Source of the DNA: a virus | Lineage: Duplodnaviria > Heunggongvirae > Uroviricota > Caudoviricetes | DNA: 64,000 nucleotides | IMG/VR virus record: IMGVR_UViG_2974649431_000001 | Coordinates: 92,282-156,281 of that record | Reading direction: 5' to 3' (one strand) | Part shown: piece after piece, positions 9,213 to 64,000 of the stretch | Layout of the letters: each line of letters begins with the position of its first letter | How positions within the stretch are numbered: the first letter of the stretch is position 1 | Notes under the pieces: model-generated | Seen by the model: only the letters and a program-made list of their open reading frames with translations | Databases searched by the model: none | What the model was told of the DNA's origin: nothing | Translations under genes and position numbers: made by a program

Positions 9213-9872
9213 ATGACCAAGTCCAGCAACATTCAACAGCGCGGCCACTGCCAGTGCTGCGGTCGCCAGCAAGCCGTGATCGCCGGCACTGGCTTCATGG
9301 CGAAGCATGGTTACACCGTCGAAAACGGATGGTTCCATGGTGTGTGCAGCGGCCACCACTATGTGCCCGTGGAAGTAAGCAGGGTGCAGCTCGACAAGCT
9401 CTGCGAAATGGTTCTCACGGAATCTGCCAGCCTGGATCTGCGCGTCAAGGACCTGCAGGAGGGCGTCGAAGTCCCGAAGGCTGTGGTAAAGCAAGTCTAC
9501 AACCCCAAGACCAGCAAGTTCGAGGATGTGTCTACTCCCTGGGCCGACGCTACTCCCTGGGCGAAGCGTGACTTCCTGGAAACCATGATCTACAGGCTGA
9601 AGTCCCGGGCCTCCGCTGGTCGCAGCTGGGTTGCCCAGATGGAACGCATCGCCGACACCTACCACGGCCAGCCTCTCATGGATGTCGTGAAGACGGAAGG
9701 CCCGGAAAAGATCGTGGTCGGCGAGCAGCGCAAGGCGCCGAGCGGCATGGTGGTGACCGTCACTGACATCCGCGGAGCACGCGTGTACTGGCAAGGCAAG
9801 CGCCCCGGCGAAGAACGCGTCATGAAGGGCTGGACGGGAAGCACGGCTTTCCGCAAGTTCGAAAAGGTCTGA
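9213..9872 (+). CDS. hypothetical Cys/His-rich protein (219 aa)
   Basis: GHCQCCGRQQ...HGVCSGHH putative metal-binding N-terminus. Strong RBS (CAGGAG) and upstream promoter. Confidence 0.55.
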   Translation: MTKSSNIQQRGHCQCCGRQQAVIAGTGFMAKHGYTVENGWFHGVCSGHHYVPVEVSRVQLDKLCEMVLTESASLDLRVKDLQEGVEVPKAVVKQVYNPKTSKFEDVSTPWADATPWAKRDFLETMIYRLKSRASAGRSWVAQMERIADTYHGQPLMDVVKTEGPEKIVVGEQRKAPSGMVVTVTDIRGARVYWQGKRPGEERVMKGWTGSTAFRKFEKV

Positions 9873-9877
9873 AAACA

Positions 9878-9909
9878 GGGAGGCTAGGACCTCCCTTTCC
9901 TGCTACAAT
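9878..9909 (+). promoter_or_regulatory. terminator hairpin plus class-B extended -10 (TGCTACAAT)
   Basis: GGGAGG-ctagga-CCTCCC + TTTCC (9878-9900), then TGCTACAAT at 9901-9909, 24 nt upstream of ATG 9933. Confidence 0.55.
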
Positions 9910-9932
9910 CTGTCATCGAAAGAACATTCATC

Positions 9933-10253
9933 ATGGACAACCAAAAACTTCAAATGGTGTCGGACAGCTTCGCTTTCCTGGAGGGGCTGGTCAGCGAGGC
10001 CACTTACCTCCAGGTCGTGGAGAAGGCTCGCGATCTCATCGAACGAGATGGCTGGATCAGCGTAAGTCAGCGTCTCCCGCCGGCTTGCCACTACATCATC
10101 GCTTACGGCCGCTCGGGGTACACTGCCCCGCGGTGCCGCCAGGTTTACAGCACCTACACGGGCACACGCCCCCGTGACACCGTGGAAGACGAGCAGATCA
10201 CCTACTGGAAGCTCTACCCCAACCGCCCACCGATGGGAGACGCCGATGAATAA
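9933..10253 (+). CDS. DUF551-like phage protein
   Basis: DGWISVSQRLPPACHYIIAYG resembles the W-x-x-x-x-x-LP core of DUF551. Paralog-like to 17180..17575 and 33444..33740. Confidence 0.45.
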   Translation: MDNQKLQMVSDSFAFLEGLVSEATYLQVVEKARDLIERDGWISVSQRLPPACHYIIAYGRSGYTAPRCRQVYSTYTGTRPRDTVEDEQITYWKLYPNRPPMGDADE

Positions 10254-11734: not shown

Positions 11735-12559
11735 ATGATAGAACCCACACTGCCGAAGCCTGCTTGGGATGCCAAGAGCATCGGCACCACGGAGGACGCC
11801 TACTCCGCACAGCAGATGAAGGAAGCGCTCCACCAACGGAACGCACTCGCCGACATCCTCGGCCAATGCATTGCAGCATCGGGCATCATCCGGCCCGTCG
11901 GACTGAGCGGCCCCCAGCTGCTGATGTTCGGCAATGACCTCCTGGAGCACCTGATCCGCCAGAACCCGCCGGTGGACAAGAAAGCAGTGATGACCACGGC
12001 CAGCGCCATTGTCGATGCACTGGTCGCCGACGCAAACGACGGGGGCTATGACCTGGAAGCCGGCTTGTTCGGCCCGGCATTCAGCAAACTGGTTCGCAGC
12101 TGGGCGCTGTGCTGCGATCTGGTCGCCCGCGCCGACGAAGCGATCACGAAGGAAGTCCCTTTCCCCACCGAGCTGCTTCGTGCGATCAACGCACTCCGGC
12201 TGGAATGCCCGTCGGAGGTCGTGAACGCCCTCGAGCATGAGTTCCGCCAGTGGTTCGACGCTGTGAACACTTCCACTGCTACGCTGAAGCGCATGCATGC
12301 AGCAGCGCGCGACCAGCTGGACAAGATCGCCGAAAACGACCCCGACCCGCTCGCGCCTCCCGGCAAGGAGTTCCACGCCGTGCTCACGGGCTGCGGCGAA
12401 GGTGTGCTCTTCGAGCATGAACCTGATGCGAAGTTCACGGAGACCGGCGACGAACGCATGACCGCCCCGGGTGTGCCTGCGATCGGAGAACACTTCCGCG
12501 AGCTCTACGCCGGCGACCCCAAGATGAAGCGCGTGAAGGTACGCGTTCTCAACGACTGA
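11735..12559 (+). CDS. hypothetical protein (274 aa)
   Basis: Start at ATG 11735 after RBS AAGGAAG. A CCTACAAT -10-like box lies at 11701. Confidence 0.5.
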   Translation: MIEPTLPKPAWDAKSIGTTEDAYSAQQMKEALHQRNALADILGQCIAASGIIRPVGLSGPQLLMFGNDLLEHLIRQNPPVDKKAVMTTASAIVDALVADANDGGYDLEAGLFGPAFSKLVRSWALCCDLVARADEAITKEVPFPTELLRAINALRLECPSEVVNALEHEFRQWFDAVNTSTATLKRMHAAARDQLDKIAENDPDPLAPPGKEFHAVLTGCGEGVLFEHEPDAKFTETGDERMTAPGVPAIGEHFRELYAGDPKMKRVKVRVLND

Positions 12560-12568
12560 AGAGGCCAC

Positions 12569-13096
12569 ATGAAGACAACCGCAGAATGGCTGGCAGGCAT
12601 CGAGAATGACCGCGCCCTGCTGGAGGACTGGCTGAAGAAACAGTACCGTGGTGAGGTGCGCGCTTCCATCAAGGTGGCGGAGCTTGCCGAGACCATCGAG
12701 GATCCGTCTCTTCGGACTGCAGTGGATCGCGTCGCCGACGACGAGGGGCGACACGCAGCATGGATTCGCGCCATCCTGAAGGTCGAGGGCGTCGAAGTCA
12801 ATCCGGACCAGGAGAACGCTGACGATCGCTACTGGCGCCACGTGATGGACGGAGAGCTGTCGCAGGACGAGCTTCTCGCCGCCGGCGCGCATGCCGAGCA
12901 GATGCGACTGGTTCGCATCGAGGCCATCATGAACTCCGGCGTGCTGGGGCAACACATCATCGCCGTCTTCCGGAGGATCTACGAAGACGAAGTGCACCAC
13001 GCGCGGATTTTCTCGCAGGCTTGCACACCCGAAGCCTACGCCAAGATGAGCGAAAAGCACCAAGCGGGCCTGGCTGCGCTTGGTCTTGAAATTTAA
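12569..13096 (+). CDS. ferritin-like di-iron domain protein
   Basis: Two E-x-x-H motifs (DDEGRHAAWI and EDEVHHARIF) spaced ~95 aa apart, typical of the ferritin-like superfamily. Inference. Confidence 0.45.
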   Translation: MKTTAEWLAGIENDRALLEDWLKKQYRGEVRASIKVAELAETIEDPSLRTAVDRVADDEGRHAAWIRAILKVEGVEVNPDQENADDRYWRHVMDGELSQDELLAAGAHAEQMRLVRIEAIMNSGVLGQHIIAVFRRIYEDEVHHARIFSQACTPEAYAKMSEKHQAGLAALGLEI

Positions 13097-19969: not shown

Positions 19970-20977
19970 GTGAGTCAAAAAGTAGGTTTCGTCATCATGC
20001 GCGCACAGCCCTTTCACGCAGGGCACGCGCACCTCGTGAAGACCGCAAGGTCGAAGTGTGACCGTCTGGTCATCATCTTGGGCAGCGCCAATCGGCCGCA
20101 GAGTGCCCGCAATCCCTGGACGTACGAAGAGCGCCGTAAGATGATCCATCTCTGGGTTGACGCCCAGGGCCTGAGCAACATCGAGTTCGCCCCGCTGAAC
20201 GATCACAGGTACAGCGATGTCACATGGCGCCAGGAAGTCCAGACGGTATTCGACGAGCTGTCATTTCCCAGCGACATACTCATCCTCTTCGGCCACAGCA
20301 AGGAGGGCAACGATTACCTAGAATGGTTCCCGGAAGTGAACTATGTCGAGGTGGCCGCTGAGCCTGGAATGGAAACGCTGTGCGCGACTGACCTGCGGCG
20401 TCAAATGTGGGACCAGGGGTGCCTGCCATCCGAAGCAGCCGCAGACATGCAGTATTTCGAGGACGAGCGTGCGAGGTTCTCCGACTACCCCTACCCCGAA
20501 ACCCTGAACTTCAACTGCGCCGACGCCATCGTCGAATGCGATGGCCACGTCGCGCTCATCCATCGCGGTGGTTCGCCGGGCAAGGGGAATTGGGCGCTTC
20601 CCGGCGGCTTCAAGAACCGCAACGAGACATTCCTGGACTGCGCCATCCGAGAGCTGCGCGAGGAAGTGAACATCCGGGTACCCGAAAAGGTGCTGCGCGG
20701 CTCCATCGTCAGCACCAAGCTGTTCGACTCCCCCGATCGGGGCGAGGGCATTCCCCGCAACACCCTGGCCGTCCACATCCGCATCACCCGTGATGCCAAC
20801 GGCGACCTCCCCCGCATTTCTCCCGGCGACGACGCCATGAAGGCCACCTGGGTGAGCATATACTCGGCCATGAATGAACTGGCGATGCACGACGATCACC
20901 AGGACATCCTTTCCGTCATGTTGGGCACCTCCCCCGTGCCTGCAATCTTCAACCCCCGTTTCCAACCCAAGCGTTAA
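19970..20977 (+). CDS. natV: bifunctional NMN adenylyltransferase / Nudix hydrolase (NadM-Nudix type)
   Basis: N-terminal cytidylyltransferase HxGH motif (FHAGHAHLV). C-terminal Nudix box GNWALPGGFKNRNETFLDCAIRELREEVNI. GTG start with RBS AAGTAGGAG. Confidence 0.85.
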   Translation: MSQKVGFVIMRAQPFHAGHAHLVKTARSKCDRLVIILGSANRPQSARNPWTYEERRKMIHLWVDAQGLSNIEFAPLNDHRYSDVTWRQEVQTVFDELSFPSDILILFGHSKEGNDYLEWFPEVNYVEVAAEPGMETLCATDLRRQMWDQGCLPSEAAADMQYFEDERARFSDYPYPETLNFNCADAIVECDGHVALIHRGGSPGKGNWALPGGFKNRNETFLDCAIRELREEVNIRVPEKVLRGSIVSTKLFDSPDRGEGIPRNTLAVHIRITRDANGDLPRISPGDDAMKATWVSIYSAMNELAMHDDHQDILSVMLGTSPVPAIFNPRFQPKR

Positions 20978-20990
20978 GAAGGAGCTTCTC

Positions 20991-22382
20991 ATGAACGCAG
21001 ATATCATGTCTTCCATTCTCTTCAACACGGACAGCTACAAGGTGTCCATGTGGAAGCAGTACCCCGCGAACACCGAGTTCGTCTACAGCTACATCGAAGC
21101 GCGCGGCGGCCCCGTCGATCACACCATCTGGTTCGGTCTCCAGGCATTCATCAACCAGTACCTGCGGCGTCCGATCACGCAGTCGGAAATCGACCTCGCG
21201 GACAAGTTCTGGACGGCGCACGGCGAGCCCTTCAACCGCGAAGGCTGGGAGCACATCCTCCGCGTCCACCGCGGCTACCTGCCGATCCGCATCAAGCAGA
21301 TCCCCGAAGGCGAACGCGTCCCCGTGAAGCACGTACTCGCGACCATCGAGAACACCGATCCCAAGGTGCCATGGCTGACCACCTGGGTGGAGACCGCTGC
21401 GCTGCGCGCCGCCTGGTACGGCACCAACGTAGCAACGATCAGCTTCGAGATCAAGCGGATCATCAAGGACTACCTGGAGCGCAGCGGCACGCCTGAAGAA
21501 CTGGGCTTCAAGCTGCATGACTTCGGCGCTCGCGGCGCCAACAGTCTGGAAAGCTCCGGCATCGGCGGCGCCGCTCACCTCGTGAACTTCATGGGGACGG
21601 ACAACGTTTCCGGCATCATCCACGCAGCCCAGCACTACGGCGCCGACCTGTTCACCACGGGCTTCAGCATCCCGGCAGCAGAGCACAGCACGATCACCAG
21701 CTGGGGTCGCGAGCACGAGAAGGACGCCTACGCGAACATGCTGGAACAGTTCTCCGGACCCGGAAAGATCTTCGCCTGTGTGAGCGACAGCTACAACATC
21801 TACGAGGCTGTTGACATGTGGGGCGCCATGCGGGATCGGATCGTGGAACTCGGCGGCACGCTCGTCGTCCGCCCGGACAGCGGCGACCCCGTCCAAGTGC
21901 TGCGCCGGCTCATGGCCATGCTGGACCGCTACTTCGGCCACACGCAGAACGAGAAGGGCTACAAGGTTCTGAACAACGTGCGCGTCATCTGGGGCGACGG
22001 CATCAACCAGGCCAGCATCAGGTCGATCTACGGCTGGCTCGTGGACGTGGAAGGCTGGTCCGCTGACAACTTCGCGTTCGGCATGGGAGGCGCGCTGCTG
22101 CAACAGCATGACCGGGACACGTTCAAGTTCGCCATGAAGGCGAGCGCAGCGTTCATCGACGGCAAGTGGGTGGAGGTCTTCAAGGACCCCGTTACCGACA
22201 GCGGAAAGGCCAGCAAGCGTGGTCGCGTGACGACCGTGCTGGGCGTCGATGGCTACCGCAACGCCGTGCAGGACTGGGAGCCGGAGGCACTGCAAACCGT
22301 CTACGAAGACGGCATGCTCATCGGTCTCCAGAACTTCAAGAACGTTCGCATTCGTGCTGAGAAGGCGCTCAACGCCGCATAG
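20991..22382 (+). CDS. nadV: nicotinamide phosphoribosyltransferase (Nampt)
   Basis: Full-length similarity to Nampt/NadV (SYKVSMWKQYP, HDFGARG, VSDSYN, VVRPDSGDP). RBS AAGAAGGAG. Confidence 0.9.
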   Translation: MNADIMSSILFNTDSYKVSMWKQYPANTEFVYSYIEARGGPVDHTIWFGLQAFINQYLRRPITQSEIDLADKFWTAHGEPFNREGWEHILRVHRGYLPIRIKQIPEGERVPVKHVLATIENTDPKVPWLTTWVETAALRAAWYGTNVATISFEIKRIIKDYLERSGTPEELGFKLHDFGARGANSLESSGIGGAAHLVNFMGTDNVSGIIHAAQHYGADLFTTGFSIPAAEHSTITSWGREHEKDAYANMLEQFSGPGKIFACVSDSYNIYEAVDMWGAMRDRIVELGGTLVVRPDSGDPVQVLRRLMAMLDRYFGHTQNEKGYKVLNNVRVIWGDGINQASIRSIYGWLVDVEGWSADNFAFGMGGALLQQHDRDTFKFAMKASAAFIDGKWVEVFKDPVTDSGKASKRGRVTTVLGVDGYRNAVQDWEPEALQTVYEDGMLIGLQNFKNVRIRAEKALNAA

Positions 22383-42811: not shown

Positions 42812-43780
42812 ATGGCACACGAAATCACCAACACCAACGGCATGGACGAAATGGCCTTCACGGGCAGCCGTGCTGCAATCTGGCATGGCCTCGGCCAAGA
42901 ACTGCCGGTCGGCGCAAGCATCGCTGAGTGGCGCAAGGCCGCCGGCATGGACTGGGAGGCGATGGAGTCCCTGGTCAGCTACAACGCCCTCGGCGAGACC
43001 AAGTTCGCACCGGACAAGAAGCTGCTGTTCCGCAGCGACAACAAGGAAGCGCTGGGCATCGTCGGCAGCGACTACAAGATCGTCCAGCCGGGGCAGGTCC
43101 TGGGCTTCTTCGACGACCTGACCAAGCTCCATGGCATGCGCCTCAGCACTGCTGGCACGCTGTTCGGCGGCAAGCGCTTCTGGGCACTCGCCGAGACCAG
43201 CAACAAGGCCGACGTGGTGGGTGGCGACGAGGTCGGCGCATACCTGCTGCTCACGACCAGCGTGGACGGGACGATGTCCACCCAAGCGCGCTACACCAGC
43301 ATCCGCGTGGTGTGCAACAACACCCTGACGATCGCACTCAGCGGCAACGCCAAGCGCGCTGTGAAGATGACGCACCACCGGGAATGGGACCCCACGCAGG
43401 TCAAGATCGACATGGGCCTGCTGGGCGAATCCTGGGCCGGCTACCTGGGCAAGCTCCGTGCGCTCAGCGAAATCAAGATGAGCGAGCAGGACACCCGCAA
43501 GTTCTACGAAAAGATGTTCTATAATCCCAGCAAGGCAGAGCCGACGACCGCTGAGCAGCGTACCGTCGACATGCTGATGGAAAAGGCCTTCGCTGGCATC
43601 GGCAGCGAGATGAGCGCCGGCACCGCCTGGGGTGCGCTGAACGGAGCCACCGAGCTCTACACGCACTGGAAGGGCAATCGCGACCTGAGCCGGCAGTTCT
43701 GGGACGCGTTCGCCGGTGAGCAGTCTGATAAGAAGGACATGGTCCTCAACGGCTTGGTCGAACAGTTCGAAATCGCATAA
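42812..43780 (+). CDS. DUF932-family protein
   Basis: LFGGKRFWAL...YLLLTTSVDGTMS...RVVCNNTL matches the DUF932 pattern. Confidence 0.55.
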   Translation: MAHEITNTNGMDEMAFTGSRAAIWHGLGQELPVGASIAEWRKAAGMDWEAMESLVSYNALGETKFAPDKKLLFRSDNKEALGIVGSDYKIVQPGQVLGFFDDLTKLHGMRLSTAGTLFGGKRFWALAETSNKADVVGGDEVGAYLLLTTSVDGTMSTQARYTSIRVVCNNTLTIALSGNAKRAVKMTHHREWDPTQVKIDMGLLGESWAGYLGKLRALSEIKMSEQDTRKFYEKMFYNPSKAEPTTAEQRTVDMLMEKAFAGIGSEMSAGTAWGALNGATELYTHWKGNRDLSRQFWDAFAGEQSDKKDMVLNGLVEQFEIA

Positions 43781-44054: not shown

Positions 44055-44460
44055 CTCGTTCATCGGCTTCCCTGTCGGGGATGTATCCGGCGACATGTGG
44101 GACAGCTTCTCCAGGGCTCGCGATGCCATTGCGGCAGCTAAAGACGCGAAGCGCCTCGAGATGTGGAAGGCTGTTGCAGCCAACTACAACAAAAGCAAGT
44201 TTCCCTGGTCCAAGCGCATCGACCCTGACACAGCGCGGGACTGGTACGACAAGAACCATCGGGCAACCAGGGGCCTCTACGGCAATCCCTGGTTGCCATG
44301 CGGACTCCACTCGCAGCGCATCGACAACATGCACTCGGACGTGCTCGACTTCATCGACTCGCTGGAGAAAAGCCAGTGGCTCGAAGCCACCTTCGTGGTT
44401 TATGTCCCCCTGAAAACCTTCAACTCTTACCAAAGGCTCATCGATGAAAATCCGCACTGA
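44032..44460 (+). CDS. hypothetical protein (142 aa)
   Basis: ORF 43990..44460 with ATG at 44032. Confidence 0.45.
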   Translation: MLILKPSDSFIGFPVGDVSGDMWDSFSRARDAIAAAKDAKRLEMWKAVAANYNKSKFPWSKRIDPDTARDWYDKNHRATRGLYGNPWLPCGLHSQRIDNMHSDVLDFIDSLEKSQWLEATFVVYVPLKTFNSYQRLIDENPH

Positions 44461-44905
44461 CAGTTTCCACTACCGCCTGCTCGCCGACTGGTGGGAAATC
44501 GACATGGACAGGCAATGTCGCACCCTGTGCCAGTATTTCTGGCATGTGGTGATGTACTCGTTCTTCACGCTCGCCCTGGCGGTCGTCGTGGGCTTCATGT
44601 CCTGGCTGTTTGCAACGGTCATGATTGCGGCGCCCCTCATGGTCGCATATTCTTTGCTGAGCGGTGGTCTGGCAGGGGACGGTCTCTGGGCCGCAGTCCT
44701 GGGGCTGGCGCTGGACGCTTGCGTGGCGTACTTCTGTTTCGAGGCTTACATGTGGAAGCGCCGCGGATCCGACGAAAACTCGCCGGTGCTTCCGATCGCA
44801 TCCAAGGCGGTGAAGTCCTTGCGTGAGTCCTGGATTGGCCAAGCATTCAAGGACTTCAAGGAGAAGCGCTGCAGCCTCATCGAGTATGTGGAGGTGCAGA
44901 AGTGA
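44444..44905 (+). CDS. membrane protein (153 aa)
   Basis: Three hydrophobic segments. Confidence 0.5.
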   Translation: MKIRTDSFHYRLLADWWEIDMDRQCRTLCQYFWHVVMYSFFTLALAVVVGFMSWLFATVMIAAPLMVAYSLLSGGLAGDGLWAAVLGLALDACVAYFCFEAYMWKRRGSDENSPVLPIASKAVKSLRESWIGQAFKDFKEKRCSLIEYVEVQK

Positions 44906-45798
44906 ACGTCACGCCTCAATCCATGCGCGCATACCTGGAAGACGCGCGCAGCAAGGGACTGGTCTCCATGAAGGAGTGCCCCAACCATCCCGGCCTGTAC
45001 GTGCTGAAGTACAGCAAGAAAGTCTTCTACAAAGACCTGTGGGACGACCACCTGGAGGAAAGCCGCGGTACCATTGTGGACGCCGACTTCAACCCCGTGG
45101 TGCTGCCCTTCCGCAAGATCTACAACTTCGGCATCGAAAAGCGTGCCCCGCACTTCGACGACGATGAGCTCGTCATGGTGCATCCCAAGGTCAACGGCTT
45201 CATGGCGGCGATCACGCCCTACAAGGGTCAGCTCATCTACTCCACCACGGGCTCCACGACGTCCGACTTCGTCGACTACATCAAGGAGCTCGCGTCGGCA
45301 TACAAGCTGGAAGGTCACCTGGAGGAGGGCACGACGTATCTGTTCGAGGCCTGCCATCCCAAGGACCCGCACGTGATCCCGGAAATGCCCGGCCTCTACT
45401 ACCTGGGGCAGCGTCGCACAGCCTTCGGCACTTCGGTGGTCCACGACGACGTGCTCGCAAGCGCGCTGGGCTGCTTCTACTATTGGCCGACGCCCTGTCG
45501 GGTGAGTGAGCTGAAGAACTGGGCGAAGCGTGCTAACCACGAGGGCTTCGTCTTCTACAGCATGACAGACCCCACGAAGGCGGCTAAAATCAAGTCGCCC
45601 TACTACCTCGCCACGAAGCTCTTCGGCCGGGCCTCCAATCTGGACGTCCTGCTGAATGGCAAAGCCAAGCTCATCATGGACGAGGAGTTCTACCCGCTGA
45701 TCGACATGGTCCGGGAGAACAAGGAAGAATTTTCGTCCATGGACGAGCAAACCCGCATGGCATGGTGCCGTGCACACCTGGAGACCCTGATCAAGTGA
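44902..45798 (+). CDS. putative ATP-dependent RNA ligase
   Basis: KVNG (nucleotidyltransferase motif I KxDG/KxNG) in HPKVNGFMAAI. Size and context (adjacent polynucleotide kinase) as in T4 rnl/pnk. Confidence 0.5.
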   Translation: MNVTPQSMRAYLEDARSKGLVSMKECPNHPGLYVLKYSKKVFYKDLWDDHLEESRGTIVDADFNPVVLPFRKIYNFGIEKRAPHFDDDELVMVHPKVNGFMAAITPYKGQLIYSTTGSTTSDFVDYIKELASAYKLEGHLEEGTTYLFEACHPKDPHVIPEMPGLYYLGQRRTAFGTSVVHDDVLASALGCFYYWPTPCRVSELKNWAKRANHEGFVFYSMTDPTKAAKIKSPYYLATKLFGRASNLDVLLNGKAKLIMDEEFYPLIDMVRENKEEFSSMDEQTRMAWCRAHLETLIK

Positions 45799-46070
45799 CC
45801 CAAGCACAGAAACCCGTCCTCGTCATCTACGAATTCGTCCCGGAGGAAGCAACTCTGTGGAGTGTGCCCGCAGACTTCTTCACGGAAGCCGAGTGGAAAG
45901 TCTTCGCGGGCACCTACCAGAACACCACGACCATCACTGATGAGGAAATGGCCCTCCACGATCGGTTCAACGTGATCAACGAAGAAGGCAATGTGGCGAC
46001 GAAGCTGGAGGGCTCGATCTTCGATGCCAGCCAGTTCAGCAAGGTCGTCATTGCGGGCTTCATCCTCTGA
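45795..46070 (+). CDS. hypothetical protein (91 aa)
   Basis: GTG start overlapping the upstream TGA. Confidence 0.4.
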   Translation: MTQAQKPVLVIYEFVPEEATLWSVPADFFTEAEWKVFAGTYQNTTTITDEEMALHDRFNVINEEGNVATKLEGSIFDASQFSKVVIAGFIL

Positions 46071-46522
46071 TGGACGAGACGACTCTGACCATCTTCCGTG
46101 GGTTGCCCGGCAGCGGCAAGTCCACCCTGGCGAAGAAGATCTGTCCGCGCGTCTACGAAGCCGACCAGTTCTTCCTGGGGCTGGACGGCAGCTACCGTTT
46201 TGACCCCGAAATGGTGAGTCGCGCGCACCGGTGGTGTGCCAAGTCCGTCTATGCAGCACTTGCGCAGCGACAGACGGTGGGTGTAGCGAACACGAACACC
46301 ACTATCGCTGAGGTCATGCGCTACGCAGAGATGGGCGTGGAGGCGGGTGTGCGCATCGCGGTGTATGAGCTCACGGGCTCCTACGGCAGCGTCCACAATG
46401 TTCCTGATTTGGCAATGGAGAGGATGCGCGACCGCTGGGTGGACGGCACTACAATCGCCGACACGTTCAACGCGTACTATCCCCATTACACCAACTTCGT
46501 CTATGCGAGGGTTTCACGATGA
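46070..46522 (+). CDS. polynucleotide 5'-kinase (Pnk kinase domain only)
   Basis: LTIFRGLPGSGKSTLAKK vs T4 Pnk LTIGCPGSGKSTWAREF. About 150 aa, with no phosphatase domain. Confidence 0.65.
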   Translation: MDETTLTIFRGLPGSGKSTLAKKICPRVYEADQFFLGLDGSYRFDPEMVSRAHRWCAKSVYAALAQRQTVGVANTNTTIAEVMRYAEMGVEAGVRIAVYELTGSYGSVHNVPDLAMERMRDRWVDGTTIADTFNAYYPHYTNFVYARVSR

Positions 46523-46929
46523 AAGCTAAGTTTTACTCCCTGCCCGGTTTCCTGCAGCACGCGATTTACCACGCCATGGATCGCGAAGACTTCCCTATGG
46601 CCGCCTGGTCCGGCGCCGCCGAAAAAGTGATCGAGGCGAAACTGACCATCAAGGTCGAAGGGGACGCCGAGGAGTACGAAATCCCGGCACTGGACATCCT
46701 GGATCGGGTGCTCAACGAGCATGCAGATGCACGCATCAACAGGCGCGCACGTGAGATGGCCCAGGAAATGCTGGGCCTGGAAAAGATGAGCGCTCTGGCT
46801 GAGCGCATGCGTTGCAGCGCAGCGGCCATTGACAGTGCTGTCAGCGACCTGGAGAGGGTCAGCGACGAGGGCTTCAAGGACATCCATCCGGACGTCTATT
46901 GGGAATCGAGTAGCTCCCAGAACTGCTGA
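46519..46929 (+). CDS. hypothetical protein (136 aa)
   Basis: ORF. Confidence 0.5.
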   Translation: MKAKFYSLPGFLQHAIYHAMDREDFPMAAWSGAAEKVIEAKLTIKVEGDAEEYEIPALDILDRVLNEHADARINRRAREMAQEMLGLEKMSALAERMRCSAAAIDSAVSDLERVSDEGFKDIHPDVYWESSSSQNC

Positions 46930-47216
46930 TGGCTCAGCGCCCCGACGGATACCTGGTGGAGCACTGGCGAAACTCTGGTTTGGTGTTCTCAACAATGGTC
47001 CCTGGGAGTACCCCTCCCCCGGACTATGGACCCGACAAGAAGGTGATACCGCTGTACCGCGAAGCGCCACTGTTCAGGTCCATCTACAAGAATCCCGCTA
47101 CGCTGAAGGACTGCATTGCGGTGCGCTTCTTTGGCTGCAAATTTGAAGAGCTCGACGACGGCGAAGTAGCCGAAGTCGAAAAGACATTCGAGGCCCTCGT
47201 TGACTATGCACGATAG
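46929..47216 (+). CDS. hypothetical protein (95 aa)
   Basis: ORF. Confidence 0.45.
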   Translation: MAQRPDGYLVEHWRNSGLVFSTMVPGSTPPPDYGPDKKVIPLYREAPLFRSIYKNPATLKDCIAVRFFGCKFEELDDGEVAEVEKTFEALVDYAR

Positions 47217-47715
47217 ACTGAACGTAGATTTCATCCACCCGGAATCCGGATACAAGCGCTATGGCTGCCGGTGGGAAAAAGAAGAGCTGGACCGACTGAG
47301 GCAGCTCTTCACGAGTGGGATGGACCTCAGCCAGACCTGCAGGCAATTGGAACGGCCTCCTGGTGGCGTCATCCCCAAGCTCCTCCAACTCGGATTGATT
47401 GCCGAGCATGAACAATCCGGCGAATACATTCGCGTCAACCAACCCAAGGAAAACATCATGAACGAAACCACCATTCTCGCCAAAAGTTTCTCGCCGGATG
47501 CTTCGGTACCCACCATCGAAACCGTCGTGCGTATCAACGGTCGCGATGCCTCCCAGATGAGCAACGCAGACATTTTCAGGCTCATCGCCAAGCTGGAGAA
47601 GGAAGTGGACGTGCTCGACGTCATCCGGGTGCCCTCCAAAAAGATTCGCGCTGCCATCGAGAGCCTGGAAGAAGACATCAAGAAGCTGGCAGAGTACGTC
47701 GATGCGCGTGCCTGA
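47206..47715 (+). CDS. hypothetical protein (169 aa)
   Basis: ATG 47206 (the track used TTG 47200). Confidence 0.45.
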   Translation: MHDRLNVDFIHPESGYKRYGCRWEKEELDRLRQLFTSGMDLSQTCRQLERPPGGVIPKLLQLGLIAEHEQSGEYIRVNQPKENIMNETTILAKSFSPDASVPTIETVVRINGRDASQMSNADIFRLIAKLEKEVDVLDVIRVPSKKIRAAIESLEEDIKKLAEYVDARA

Positions 47716-48253
47716 TCCCTTCCTCGCCATGGAGGTGGCCTACGAATGGCACGCCTCCCAGACCAGGAAGTTCACCGGCGAGCCCTACGTCATTCACCTC
47801 GGTGAAGTCGCTGGGTTCGTTTCGAGTGCTACGACCAGCAAGGCCGCGATCTGCGCAGCCTGGCTCCATGACAGCATCGAAGACCAGGGCAAGACCTGGG
47901 ATGACATCGAGGCTCTCTTCGATGCCGAAGTCGCCGACTACGTGCTCGCCCTCACCGACCAGGAGGAGGGCAACAGTGCAGAGCGTCACACGGGTGCAGT
48001 CGAGCGGCTACGCAATGCACCCTACCTGGCTCAGGTCGTGAAGTGCGGCGACATCTACTCCAACACCAAGTCCATCGCCTCCCACGATCCCACGTGGGGC
48101 ATGTACTACGTGGAAAAGAAACTGGAAGTCCTGGACGCGATGATCCCGAGCCGTGCAAGGGCTTTCGCAAGGGAGGTCGCCTCGAGGGCTCTCTACCAAT
48201 GTGAACATTTCTTCGTCGAGCGCTGGCTGGCACAGCGTGCAGGAAAACTATGA
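47702..48253 (+). CDS. HD-domain phosphohydrolase
   Basis: H...HLGEV and AAWLHDSIED (HD motif). Confidence 0.55.
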   Translation: MRVPDPFLAMEVAYEWHASQTRKFTGEPYVIHLGEVAGFVSSATTSKAAICAAWLHDSIEDQGKTWDDIEALFDAEVADYVLALTDQEEGNSAERHTGAVERLRNAPYLAQVVKCGDIYSNTKSIASHDPTWGMYYVEKKLEVLDAMIPSRARAFAREVASRALYQCEHFFVERWLAQRAGKL

Positions 48254-48810
48254 GCGACATCTACTTCACTTCTGACCTTCACGCGTTCCACAAGAACATC
48301 ATGAAGTTCTGCCCGGCTACGCGCCACGGCGACAACGTCAGTGAGATGACGTCCATCCTCCTGGACCAAATCAACAAGACGGTGAAGCCAGGGGACACGC
48401 TCTACAACCTGGGCGATGTGAGCTTCGGAAGCGCCGCTCAGACCGAGGGTTTTCTGGGTGCCATTGCTTGCCGGAACCATCATCTGGTTTACGGGAACCA
48501 CGACCAGGTGATCCGCAAGAGCCCCAAGCTCCAGTCCCTGTTCGCGTCGGTGCAAACCGAACTGACGATCACGCACCGCAAGGTCGAGATCTACATGCAC
48601 CACTTCCCGCATCGCAGCTGGGACAAGAGCCACTATGGTGCCTTCCATCTGTATGGGCACCACCACGGGGCTCTGGAAGATGAGCCCTGGGGTCGCAGCA
48701 TGGACGTGGGCATCGACGCGCGCCCCTTCGGTGACATGAAGGTCTGGCACATCGATGAGGTCTTCCAGATTCTGGGTGCGCGCGAGCCCCTTGGGAAGTT
48801 TTCCGACTGA
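48250..48810 (+). CDS. calcineurin-like metallophosphoesterase
   Basis: Motifs DLHAFH, LGDVSFG, GNHD and HH...H. Confidence 0.65.
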   Translation: MSDIYFTSDLHAFHKNIMKFCPATRHGDNVSEMTSILLDQINKTVKPGDTLYNLGDVSFGSAAQTEGFLGAIACRNHHLVYGNHDQVIRKSPKLQSLFASVQTELTITHRKVEIYMHHFPHRSWDKSHYGAFHLYGHHHGALEDEPWGRSMDVGIDARPFGDMKVWHIDEVFQILGAREPLGKFSD

Positions 48811-49037
48811 TGTGGGCAGTCGTGGACGGGTGGCCGCTCTTGCTGAGGGCTCGGGCCACATATCACGAACGCAAGGCCGAGAGAACGGTAGCATACGCTG
48901 CTAAAATCAAAGCCAAGCAAGACACACGACAACGGAAATGTCAAGAAAAACTTTTGAAAAAGGCCGGCTCTACCTCGTCATCGGAGGGCCACTCAATCCC
49001 CGCTTCTGGAACATCGGCGCGACCGTCAGGTCTGTGA
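48810..49037 (+). CDS. questionable ORF (75 aa, low complexity)
   Basis: Overlaps 48938..49240 by 100 nt. One of the two is probably not expressed as annotated. Confidence 0.15.
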   Translation: MWAVVDGWPLLLRARATYHERKAERTVAYAAKIKAKQDTRQRKCQEKLLKKAGSTSSSEGHSIPASGTSARPSGL

Positions 49038-49240
49038 AGTCTCTGGAAGACGGTCTCTGGCTCTGCCGGCATGCCCAGGAGGGGAAGAAGCTGAAGGGGT
49101 CCGATGAAATGGGCTTTGCACCCATGCGTACCTCGTGGCTCATCGAGATTGCCGAAGGGGGTTCGACGGCAGAACTCCTGGGTGCAGCCAATGGTGGTCC
49201 CGGAGGAACGGGCGCCAAAGTCGAAGAAGCATTCGCATAG
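48938..49240 (+). CDS. hypothetical protein (100 aa)
   Basis: ORF; weak RBS. Confidence 0.35.
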   Translation: MSRKTFEKGRLYLVIGGPLNPRFWNIGATVRSVKSLEDGLWLCRHAQEGKKLKGSDEMGFAPMRTSWLIEIAEGGSTAELLGAANGGPGGTGAKVEEAFA

Positions 49241-49249
49241 AAAGGAAAT

Positions 49250-49645
49250 ATGAGCTACCTCTGCAAAAAACAGCATAAATCGAATTTCGCAGCCCTCCGT
49301 GGGCTAGTCATCGAGAAAATCGAAGGCCTGGAAGTCGATAGCGAACGCGTCGAGTTCCATACCGCCTGCGGACGTCTGTTCCAGATGTACCACGAGCAGA
49401 ACTGCTGCGAACACGTCTACATCGCGGACGTCGTAGGTGACGTGTACGACCTGGTCAAATCTCCCATCACCATGGCAGAAGAGTCCAGCCGGGAAGCAAC
49501 CATTCCTGAAGAAGTCTACGAGTCGGGGACCTGGACTTTCTACAAACTCGCGACCATCAAGGGGTATGTGGACATCCGCTGGCTGGGCAAGTCCAACGGC
49601 TACTACGGAGAAGGCGTGAGCTTCTTCGAAGTCAAGGGCGAATGA
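49250..49645 (+). CDS. hypothetical protein (131 aa)
   Basis: RBS AGAAAGGAAA. Confidence 0.5.
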   Translation: MSYLCKKQHKSNFAALRGLVIEKIEGLEVDSERVEFHTACGRLFQMYHEQNCCEHVYIADVVGDVYDLVKSPITMAEESSREATIPEEVYESGTWTFYKLATIKGYVDIRWLGKSNGYYGEGVSFFEVKGE

Positions 49646-49911
49646 GGAACCCCTTCCACGAGCTGAAGCTCGTTCAGCCCTTCTTCGATGACGTGGTTGC
49701 CCTGAAGAAGACTTTTGAAATCCGCCTGGACGATCGCCAGGACGGCTTTGAAGTCGGCGACATACTGCACCTGAAGGAGTGGACGCCCTCTGGGCATACC
49801 GGCCGTGAGGTCGTCATGCAGGTCACCTATGTCCTCCGAGGCCGCGACTATCCGGGCTATGGCCTCGACCCCAACTACGTCATCCTGTCCATCCAACCGA
49901 AGAAAGATTAA
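49642..49911 (+). CDS. ASCH-like (DUF3850) domain protein
   Basis: KKTFEIRLDDRQDGFEVGDILHLKEW...YVILSI matches the DUF3850/ASCH PUA-like pattern. Confidence 0.45.
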   Translation: MRNPFHELKLVQPFFDDVVALKKTFEIRLDDRQDGFEVGDILHLKEWTPSGHTGREVVMQVTYVLRGRDYPGYGLDPNYVILSIQPKKD

Positions 49912-63888: not shown

Positions 63889-63931
63889 AGAAAGCGCCGA
63901 AATGGCGCTACAATAGTGGCTAAGTAACAAC

Positions 63932-64000
63932 GCGGAGTAGCTCAGTTGGTTAGAGCGCCGGACTCATAATCCGGAGGTCGCAGGTTCGAGTCCTGCCTAC
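63932..64000 (+). tRNA. tRNA (anticodon CAT; Met or lysidine-modified Ile2), truncated at the window edge
   Basis: D-arm TAGCTCAGTTGGTTAGAGC. Anticodon stem-loop CCGGA-CTCATAA-TCCGG. Variable loop AGGTC. T-arm GCAGG-TTCGAGT-CCTGC. 3' acceptor strand cut after CTAC. GCTACAAT box 20 nt upstream. Confidence 0.8.

Follow-up and report, generated by a model that had tools for sequence, protein, structure and literature searches.

A split set of predicted RNA heal-and-seal enzymes in Acidovorax phage ACP17 and its recurrence in other phages

The genome of Acidovorax phage ACP17 (Busanvirus, 156,281 bp; NC_041997 / KY979132) carries a gene cluster that probably encodes a split heal-and-seal system for the repair of RNA breaks, most likely in tRNA. 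This proposal, made with moderate confidence, concerns a trio formed by an RNA ligase (gp221), a stand-alone kinase (gp223) and a metallophosphoesterase (gp228), to which a putative alarmone hydrolase (gp227) would be an optional addition. It is carried by family and fold membership, by intact catalytic motifs and by conserved gene linkage. The analysed stretch, referred to here as the window, corresponds to the last 64 kb of the genome (64,000 nucleotides), and its bases 44400-49300 are 100% identical to NC_041997/KY979132. Positions are those of the window and are converted into positions of the ACP17 record by adding 92281. A previous sequence-only reading had described four separate enzyme genes interspersed with four small open reading frames (ORFs), and all eight are present on the plus strand at the same coordinates. 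The four enzyme genes are the following:

44902..45798, plus strand: gp221, short Rnl1-family ATP-dependent RNA ligase by homology, 298 residues (phrog_562, E 7e-48)
46070..46522, plus strand: gp223, stand-alone P-loop kinase, 150 residues (AAA_33, phrog_2071, phrog_505)
47702..48253, plus strand: gp227, RelA/SpoT-type HD hydrolase (putative small alarmone hydrolase), 183 residues (HD_4, TIGR00691)
48250..48810, plus strand: gp228, binuclear metallophosphoesterase of the aq_1665 clade, 186 residues (phrog_547, E 1.2e-48)

In GenBank, the ACP17 products are labelled 'RNA ligase' (gp221), 'ATPase' (gp223), 'metal-dependent phosphohydrolase / guanosine-3',5'-bis(diphosphate) 3'-pyrophosphohydrolase' (gp227) and 'phosphoesterase' (gp228).

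The linkage of these genes was surveyed in 84 loci encoding a related ligase, i.e. 80 IMG/VR contigs retrieved with the ligase profile and four cultured phages, whose ORFs were searched with iterated profiles. A gp228 homologue was detected in 74 of the 84 loci, adjoining the ligase gene or within about 3.7 kb of it and usually immediately upstream. In the ten other loci, the sequence available on the upstream side of the ligase gene is shorter than 0.9 kb, and thus all 74 informative loci are positive. The kinase has a homologue in 65 of the loci, and an HD protein of the RelA/SpoT homologue (RSH) type was found in 21, most often between phosphoesterase and ligase. About 20 different gene orders were observed, even among closely related ligases, which argues for selection on the linkage and not for inherited synteny alone. 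For instance, Otagovirus phiK7A1 has the order HD, phosphoesterase, ligase, one ORF and kinase, and Pakpunavirus C11 the order HD, one ORF, phosphoesterase, three ORFs, ligase and kinase. In Vequintavirus FV3, phosphoesterase and kinase genes are divergent from those of ligase, cREC and Sir2. The trio stands together in all three of these phages. The closest relative of ACP17 is the Logan contig L087, whose ligase is 53% identical and whose order is DUF932, ligase, kinase, homologues of gp220, gp226 and gp224, HD, phosphoesterase and thyX. At the level of host genera, phage database records with the ligase and with the kinase are found in closely matching numbers for Escherichia (199/198), Pseudomonas (175/173), Klebsiella (36/36), Acinetobacter (24/24), Campylobacter (23/23), Salmonella (14/14) and Aeromonas (13/13). 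The proposal that ligase, kinase and phosphoesterase form one set is borne out in that the three remain linked in many different phage lineages. Streptomyces phages encode a ligase of the same family 0.75 kb from a full-length Pnk (kinase and phosphatase), in a region of tRNA genes. This suggests that the small kinase and the separate phosphoesterase replace the fused T4-type enzyme.

The assignment of gp221 to the T4 gp63/Rnl1 family (phrog_562) was extended by alignment. Searches of Pfam and the PDB with the single sequence gave no match, and a homologue profile was needed. The database search returned 983 homologues, nearly all of 290-310 residues and many with PF09511. A profile of 33 homologues retrieved the T4 Rnl1 structures 2c5u, 5tt6 and 9do4 (E 6.5e-12) over T4 residues 37-250. 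Numbered on the 298-residue version (GTG start), motif I (K96-V-N98-G99) is invariant in the 33 homologues and is aligned to T4 K99-E-D101-G102, T4 Rnl1 having Asp101 (KxDG) where gp221 has Asn98 (KxNG). The predicted nucleophile of gp221 is K96. The sequence-only reading had recognized a ligase-like protein by its KxNG motif; motifs III, IV and V are present as well, as invariant E149, E214-G215 and K229-I-K231, which correspond to T4 E159, E227-G228 and K240/K242. The Rnl1-specific residues R55, K72 and Y74 (T4 R54, K75 and F77) are also invariant, and the position of T4 K119 is held by an invariant Thr (T116) in the gp221 family. From mutagenesis in the Shuman laboratory, the aligned T4 Rnl1 residues are reportedly essential. 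Motif V is followed by only 67 residues in gp221, whereas T4 Rnl1 has a 120-residue tRNA-specificity domain (about 255-374), and the PHROG alignment of gp221 stops at 288 of 377. As in the sequence-only reading, the true start of gp221 is probably GTG 44902, because a GGAGG lies 7 nt upstream of it and the homologues have extra N-terminal residues. This codon overlaps the gp220 stop as GTGA. The ATG at 44923 annotated in GenBank has no such site.

The kinase gp223 matches AAA_33 (E 2.5e-9), phrog_2071 'ATPase' (E 1.7e-37) and phrog_505 'polynucleotide kinase' (E 3e-8). When a profile of 35 sequences was run against the PDB, the top matches were the Mucorales kinases 9d8a/9drz, PSTK, T4 Pnk 1ly1 (7e-7), Pnkp1, mammalian PNKP and the kinase of Clostridium thermocellum (Cth) Pnkp. 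The fold search was in agreement: with an AlphaFold2 (AF2) model of mean predicted local distance difference test (pLDDT) 93, Foldseek ranks 1-13 all fell to the kinase domains of PNKP and Cth Pnkp, with PSTK and the Mucorales kinases next. The Trl1-type kinase appeared among both profile and fold matches. Additionally, hhalign gave 97.5% probability over 124 columns for gp223 against the Pnk of Streptomyces phage LukeCage, a full-length enzyme with both kinase and phosphatase domains. The P-loop (G11-L-P-G-S-G-K17-S18) is invariant in 55 homologues, and the invariant D32 is aligned to the general base D35 of T4 Pnk and to the RDD motif of a phage Pnk. By profile-based descent and modelled fold, gp223 is thus placed in the polynucleotide-kinase clade and, as had been proposed, it has no phosphatase domain. 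Its predicted activity would be that of a 5'-OH kinase with a polynucleotide substrate.

The kinase could also be considered as an enzyme of nucleotide salvage, acting on nucleosides or nucleotides next to a phosphoesterase that would be a nucleotidase or phosphodiesterase, both feeding thymidylate synthase and ribonucleotide reductase, with an unrelated ligase. The genes thyX and those of a class Ia ribonucleotide reductase do lie 1-6 kb downstream of the cluster, and in Otagovirus and Pakpunavirus the genes of nicotinamide phosphoribosyltransferase (NAMPT) and phosphoribosyl pyrophosphate (PRPP) synthetase directly follow the module kinase. The kinase was moreover named 'nucleotide kinase' in one comparative study (PMC9503650), and it is missing the lid arginines of Pnk. 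Salvage is nevertheless very unlikely in view of the gp223 matches: polynucleotide and tRNA kinases come first in both sequence and fold, and the kinases of adenylate, shikimate and uridine score 3-4 orders of magnitude worse with the profile. The distribution of the kinase over phage genomes also parallels that of the ligase almost one to one.

Under the repair proposal, the 3' end would be healed by gp228. This protein has the full set of six conserved metallophosphoesterase motifs (D9xH11, G55-D56, G82-N83-H84-D85, H118, G136-H137 and H139). Its AF2 model (pLDDT 97) and its profile point to the same relative, Aquifex aq_1665 (1xm7; profile E 1.7e-21; Foldseek top match, E 2.7e-11, template modelling (TM) score 0.72). 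Other matches are weak (E 1e-5 to 1e-3) and include LpxH, MJ0936, CD73, the Pseudomonas putida MPE nuclease and Mre11. A lambda-phosphatase/Pnkp-like enzyme or a Ser/Thr (PP1/calcineurin) phosphatase was rejected, no such chain having been retrieved by profile or fold search, and an Mre11 type was rejected as well, the likeness being at the weak level common to all small metallophosphoesterases. In profile and Foldseek searches, gp228 therefore groups with neither the protein Ser/Thr phosphatases nor the Mre11 nucleases. The homology of gp228 in itself says nothing about its substrate; it is predicted here to be a 2',3'-cyclic phosphodiesterase / 3'-phosphatase. Binuclear metallophosphoesterase chemistry is known to heal RNA ends in bacterial Pnkp (PMC3675462).

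The same weak matches bear on a role in DNA-end processing, where the phosphoesterase would act as a nuclease, in the manner of the PdeM/MPE that accompanies ligases in the DNA-repair clusters of bacteria, and would work together with the ligase on DNA nicks or ends. gp228 has a weak match to TIGR04123 PdeM (E 0.007), Foldseek found the P. putida nuclease MPE and Mre11 (E about 6e-4), and the Kayvirus homologue of gp228 is annotated 'DNA ligase-associated'. The likeness to PdeM, MPE and Mre11 is however no stronger than to LpxH or nucleotidases, gp221 belongs to the Rnl1 RNA-ligase family and a separate ATP-dependent DNA ligase is encoded close by in the same phages. Taken together, these points make DNA-end processing highly improbable.

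The fourth enzyme, gp227, had been described as an HD hydrolase and counted in the cluster. Its membership of the HD superfamily is upheld, with HD_4 at E 1.2e-12 (48.2 bits for a Pfam cut-off of 27.2). The profile TIGR00691 spoT_relA (E 1.5e-19) and the PDB matches, Lmo0812, Mesh1 and the hydrolase domains of RelSeq/Rel and SpoT, assign it more narrowly to the RelA/SpoT-type small alarmone hydrolases (SAH), and its presence in only 21 of the 84 loci makes it an optional component. The active site H...HD...ED...D...N (H17, H32, H56-D57, E60-D61, D117 and N121) is invariant in 14 module-linked homologues. Judged from this family, its substrates are most likely (p)ppGpp/(p)ppApp or 3'-pyrophosphorylated tRNA, and not 2',3'-cyclic phosphate ends. 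Alarmone hydrolysis is a known activity of SAH enzymes. Two of them, MESH1 and ATfaRel, restore tRNAs that a toxSAS has pyrophosphorylated at the CCA end (bioRxiv 10.1101/2021.04.30.441581), and the phage SAH PaSpo was reported to neutralise toxSAS toxins (PMC9712102). Because SAH enzymes can restore tRNA and an RSH hydrolase is repeatedly placed inside an RNA-ligase module, an RNA-end substrate is suggested for gp227.

The assignment of gp227 also opens an alternative in which action on RNA ends is limited to the ligase and the kinase, and the other two enzymes, phosphoesterase and HD protein, destroy nucleotide signals (cyclic or linear second messengers, alarmones) from within the same early counter-defence region. 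The HD protein is unambiguously of the RSH type, the phosphoesterase family is found in many phages without a ligase nearby, and the weaker fold relatives of gp228 include the phosphodiesterase MJ0936 and nucleotidases. Metallophosphoesterases of related phages have furthermore been read as counter-nucleotide defences (PMC7824862, PMC9025141). This arrangement is unlikely all the same, as the phosphoesterase stands beside the ligase in every informative locus despite the shuffled gene order, which would be unexpected for two unrelated functions. Moreover, if gp228 is set aside, the ACP17 window holds no candidate for 3'-end healing, searches for homologues of HAD, 2H, cREC and DSP proteins having found none.

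For the preferred heal-and-seal system, we infer the substrates, the activities and the counter-defence role of the cluster as follows. The two-metal phosphoesterase gp228 would open and remove the 2',3'-cyclic phosphate or remove the 3'-phosphate left at a break, generating a 3'-OH, and the P-loop kinase gp223 would phosphorylate the 5'-OH. The ligase gp221 would then adenylylate itself on K96, transfer the AMP to the 5'-phosphate and seal the nick. As an optional add-on, gp227 may destroy (p)ppGpp/(p)ppApp produced by host stress or toxin systems; alternatively, it may strip the 3'-pyrophosphate put by toxSAS enzymes on tRNA CCA ends. The RNA-repair or counter-defence module initially proposed is thereby retained as regards its domain combination, which differs from that of T4, and the linkage of the trio; the HD protein becomes an optional member. 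In a broader version, gp227 would itself be a working part on RNA 3' ends, removing either the toxSAS 3'-pyrophosphate from CCA or the 2'/3'-phosphate that ring opening leaves. On this view, the cluster would serve as a dual island of tRNA restoration, reversing both anticodon-loop cleavage and CCA-end pyrophosphorylation, and its short Rnl1, aq_1665-type phosphoesterase and lid-less kinase would have been assembled independently of T4 Pnkp and bacterial Pnkp. This extension is considered improbable.

Several observations weigh against the heal-and-seal proposal. The sole close structural relative of gp228, aq_1665, is a protein of no known function, and neither profile nor fold relates gp228 to the Pnkp phosphatase domain; as a counterpart of Pnkp, the calcineurin-like phosphoesterase of the sequence-only reading thus holds for the superfamily motifs and fails for homology to that domain. 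Phage records with a member of the phosphoesterase family are about twice as numerous as those with the ligase (1501 versus 747), and Kayvirus and some Vibrio phages encode the phosphoesterase without an adjacent ligase. In ACP17 itself, gp228 is not adjacent to the ligase gene, from which it is separated by 2.4 kb. The ligase is devoid of the C-terminal domain that gives T4 Rnl1 its tRNA preference, its profile alignment ending at T4 residue 250. In the kinase, hhalign placed a 12-residue deletion at the lid arginines (T4 R122/R126), where ACP17 reads GSYGSVHNVP, and F35 stands at the position of T4 R38. The missing lid arginines of the ACP17-type kinase are essential in T4 Pnk, and the earlier Pnk assignment is accordingly maintained for the clade and not for a T4-type lid. 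A second kinase type of 153 residues, found in most environmental relatives, retains the lid (RLxSRPGKxIP). The linkage counts have to be read in the light of sampling, as the 80 IMG/VR loci form 19 ligase clusters at 80% identity and five at 60% and are not 80 independent observations. Finally, no biochemical study of this enzyme set was found in the literature.

The genes of the cluster lie close together, with stop codons that overlap start codons, as the gp227 stop does with the gp228 start, and they are part of a long stretch of small early-type genes that all point the same way. Scanning 41.5-52.5 kb for promoters and terminators gave the same counts as shuffled sequence, and no operon boundaries could be drawn from it. 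The small ORFs of the cluster are the following:

44444..44905, plus strand: gp220, phrog_944 membrane protein, 153 residues (phrog_944, E 5.9e-32), its stop overlapping the ligase start
45762..46070, plus strand: gp222, small ORF between ligase and kinase (phrog_4658, E 3e-19)
46519..46929, plus strand: gp224, small ORF
46929..47216, plus strand: gp225, small ORF
47200..47715, plus strand: gp226, small ORF with a weakly GcrA-like N-terminus

The phrog_944 membrane protein (135-153 residues) accompanies the ligase in three distant lineages, i.e. ACP17, Pakpunavirus C11, where its gene is directly upstream of that of the ligase (L005:5603-6010), and the Logan contig L087, where it lies inside the cluster (9569-10027). 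In ACP17, gp222 occupies the position of the cREC protein of rV5-like phages: the gene directly following the ligase in the rV5-like phage FV3 (L004:6894-7244) encodes a cREC_REC protein (FV3_00076; PF20274, E 4.5e-14). The identification of gp222 as a cREC was rejected, as the protein matches neither PF20274 nor any other Pfam family, shows no BLASTP similarity to FV3_00076 and gave no tblastn match in phages. It is nearly an orphan, with six weak homologues among 1.8 billion representatives. Family searches with gp224, gp225 and gp226 returned only the match of gp226 to GcrA, under the cut-off (E 1.9e-5); homologues of gp224 and gp226 are retained inside the cluster in L087.

Other genes recur around the module in its environmental relatives. 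A 159-residue Cys-phosphatase with the loop HCTAGICRSG (HCxxGxxRS) and sub-threshold DSPc/PTP-SAK matches is encoded in 58 environmental loci (e.g. L027:11781-12260), next to the kinase or the phosphoesterase. A 70-residue ORF follows the ligase in 64 of these loci (e.g. L074:11105-11317), and a 470-residue DUF2828+DUF7788 protein is found in 20 (e.g. L018:2939-4351). None of the three was found when searched for in the ACP17 window. The HD protein and the Cys-phosphatase were considered as mutually exclusive fillers of one slot and this was rejected: among well-flanked loci, seven have both, 20 the phosphatase only, three the HD only and 11 neither. Since the two enzymes co-occur, they are not simple substitutes.

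On the downstream side of the ACP17 cluster, gp230 (DUF7448; 49250-49911) begins 440 nt after the phosphoesterase gene and is followed by gp231, a DUF3850/ASCH-like putative RNA-binding protein. Homologues of gp230 are located between phosphoesterase and ligase in four IMG/VR loci (L009 (1047-1415), L010, L011 and L046); in L053, a homologue lies upstream of the ligase at a distance of about 3.3 kb. Just upstream of the cluster, the DUF932 protein gp217 (42812-43780) is 80% identical to L087:6963-7931, unlike the neighbouring cluster genes, which are only 28-57% identical between ACP17 and L087. In L087, a NUMOD3 homing-endonuclease-like gene on the minus strand (12404-12994) directly follows the phosphoesterase gene; it is absent in ACP17. 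Further away in the window (19997-22382), genes of a nicotinamide mononucleotide (NMN) adenylyltransferase-Nudix protein and of NAMPT stand side by side as an NAD+ salvage pair. The sole Rfam match in the window is a terminal tRNA-Met (63931-64000), truncated by the end of the GenBank record, so that the deposited linear genome was opened within a tRNA gene.

Toxins that cleave or modify tRNA form a growing class of anti-phage defences, and the repair pathway of T4 is the only one of a phage to have been studied at the bench. The trio described here is encoded by hundreds of cultured phages, including rV5-like, PAK_P1-like, phiPsa374-like, Vibrio and Acinetobacter phages as well as ACP17, and phage therapy or biocontrol makes use of several of these groups. 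Should the repair role be confirmed, it would provide a function both for the aq_1665 metallophosphoesterase clade and for the gene labelled 'ATPase', and the trio would represent a third, independently assembled route to an RNA heal-and-seal system. It could also help to predict the hosts whose ribonuclease defences these phages overcome. The repeated insertion of an alarmone hydrolase in the module is a concrete lead, as it points to RNA ends as possible in vivo targets of RSH hydrolases.

Among known systems, that of phage T4, composed of Pnkp (PseT) and Rnl1, shares with ACP17 the ligase family with its catalytic residues and, T4 K119 apart, its Rnl1-specific residues, a kinase homologous to the Pnk kinase domain and the same predicted heal-and-seal logic against breaks that leave a 2',3'-cyclic phosphate and a 5'-OH. 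In ACP17, however, no HAD phosphatase is fused to the kinase, 3'-end healing is provisionally assigned to a separate metallophosphoesterase, and the ligase is about 75 residues shorter than T4 Rnl1. The bacterial systems Pnkp (Clostridium thermocellum Pnkp-Hen1) and Pnkp1-Rnl-Hen1 combine the same three chemistries as those predicted here, and their kinase fold is among the best matches of gp223. ACP17 differs from bacterial Pnkp in having three genes in place of one polypeptide or a defined complex, an Rnl1-type ligase and an aq_1665-type phosphoesterase, and no Hen1 methyltransferase is annotated in its window. In Runella slithyformis, Munir and Shuman are said to have described in 2017 an HD-Pnk in which an HD 2',3'-phosphoesterase is fused to Pnk. 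ACP17 resembles it by the association of an HD-superfamily enzyme with a Pnk-type kinase and an RNA ligase; by description it is set apart by its HD protein, which is encoded by a separate gene, belongs to the RelA/SpoT family (HD_4) and is optional. PaSpo of Salmonella phage SSU5 is likened to gp227, also by description, as a phage-encoded single-domain RSH hydrolase with an H...HD...ED...D...N site.

The nearest precedent is the rV5/Mydo-type neighbourhood, in which Sir2, a T4-like tRNA ligase, cREC, a nucleotide kinase, MazG and in some cases a calcineurin-like phosphoesterase were grouped and read as RNA repair (Iyer et al. 2022, PMC9503650). ACP17 shares with this neighbourhood the families of all three enzymes (ligase, kinase and phosphoesterase), and the RNA-repair reading is computational in both cases. 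ACP17 is distinguished by the lack of Sir2, MazG and detectable cREC, with an RSH-type HD protein instead, and the phosphoesterase described as occasional in the rV5/Mydo type is found in every informative locus of the 84-locus sample. In the Pakpunavirus Adele, a polynucleotide 5'-kinase without a 3'-phosphatase domain was noted to adjoin an RNA ligase, the alarmone hydrolase being treated separately (PMC12846349), and the ACP17 genome paper mentions a putative RNA ligase only (PMC5796750). As rV5-type neighbourhoods with the same enzymes are present in the literature, the ACP17 cluster is of a computationally recognised kind; similar clusters were already known from comparative genomics, to which ACP17 adds another member. 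To our knowledge, the placement of an RSH hydrolase between RNA ligase and phosphoesterase (21 loci) had not been pointed out previously. Overall, the aspects that are new with respect to these systems are the near-obligate pairing of the phosphoesterase with a short Rnl1, the matching genome distribution shown by the kinase, the recurrence of an RSH hydrolase and a kinase subtype that lacks the lid.

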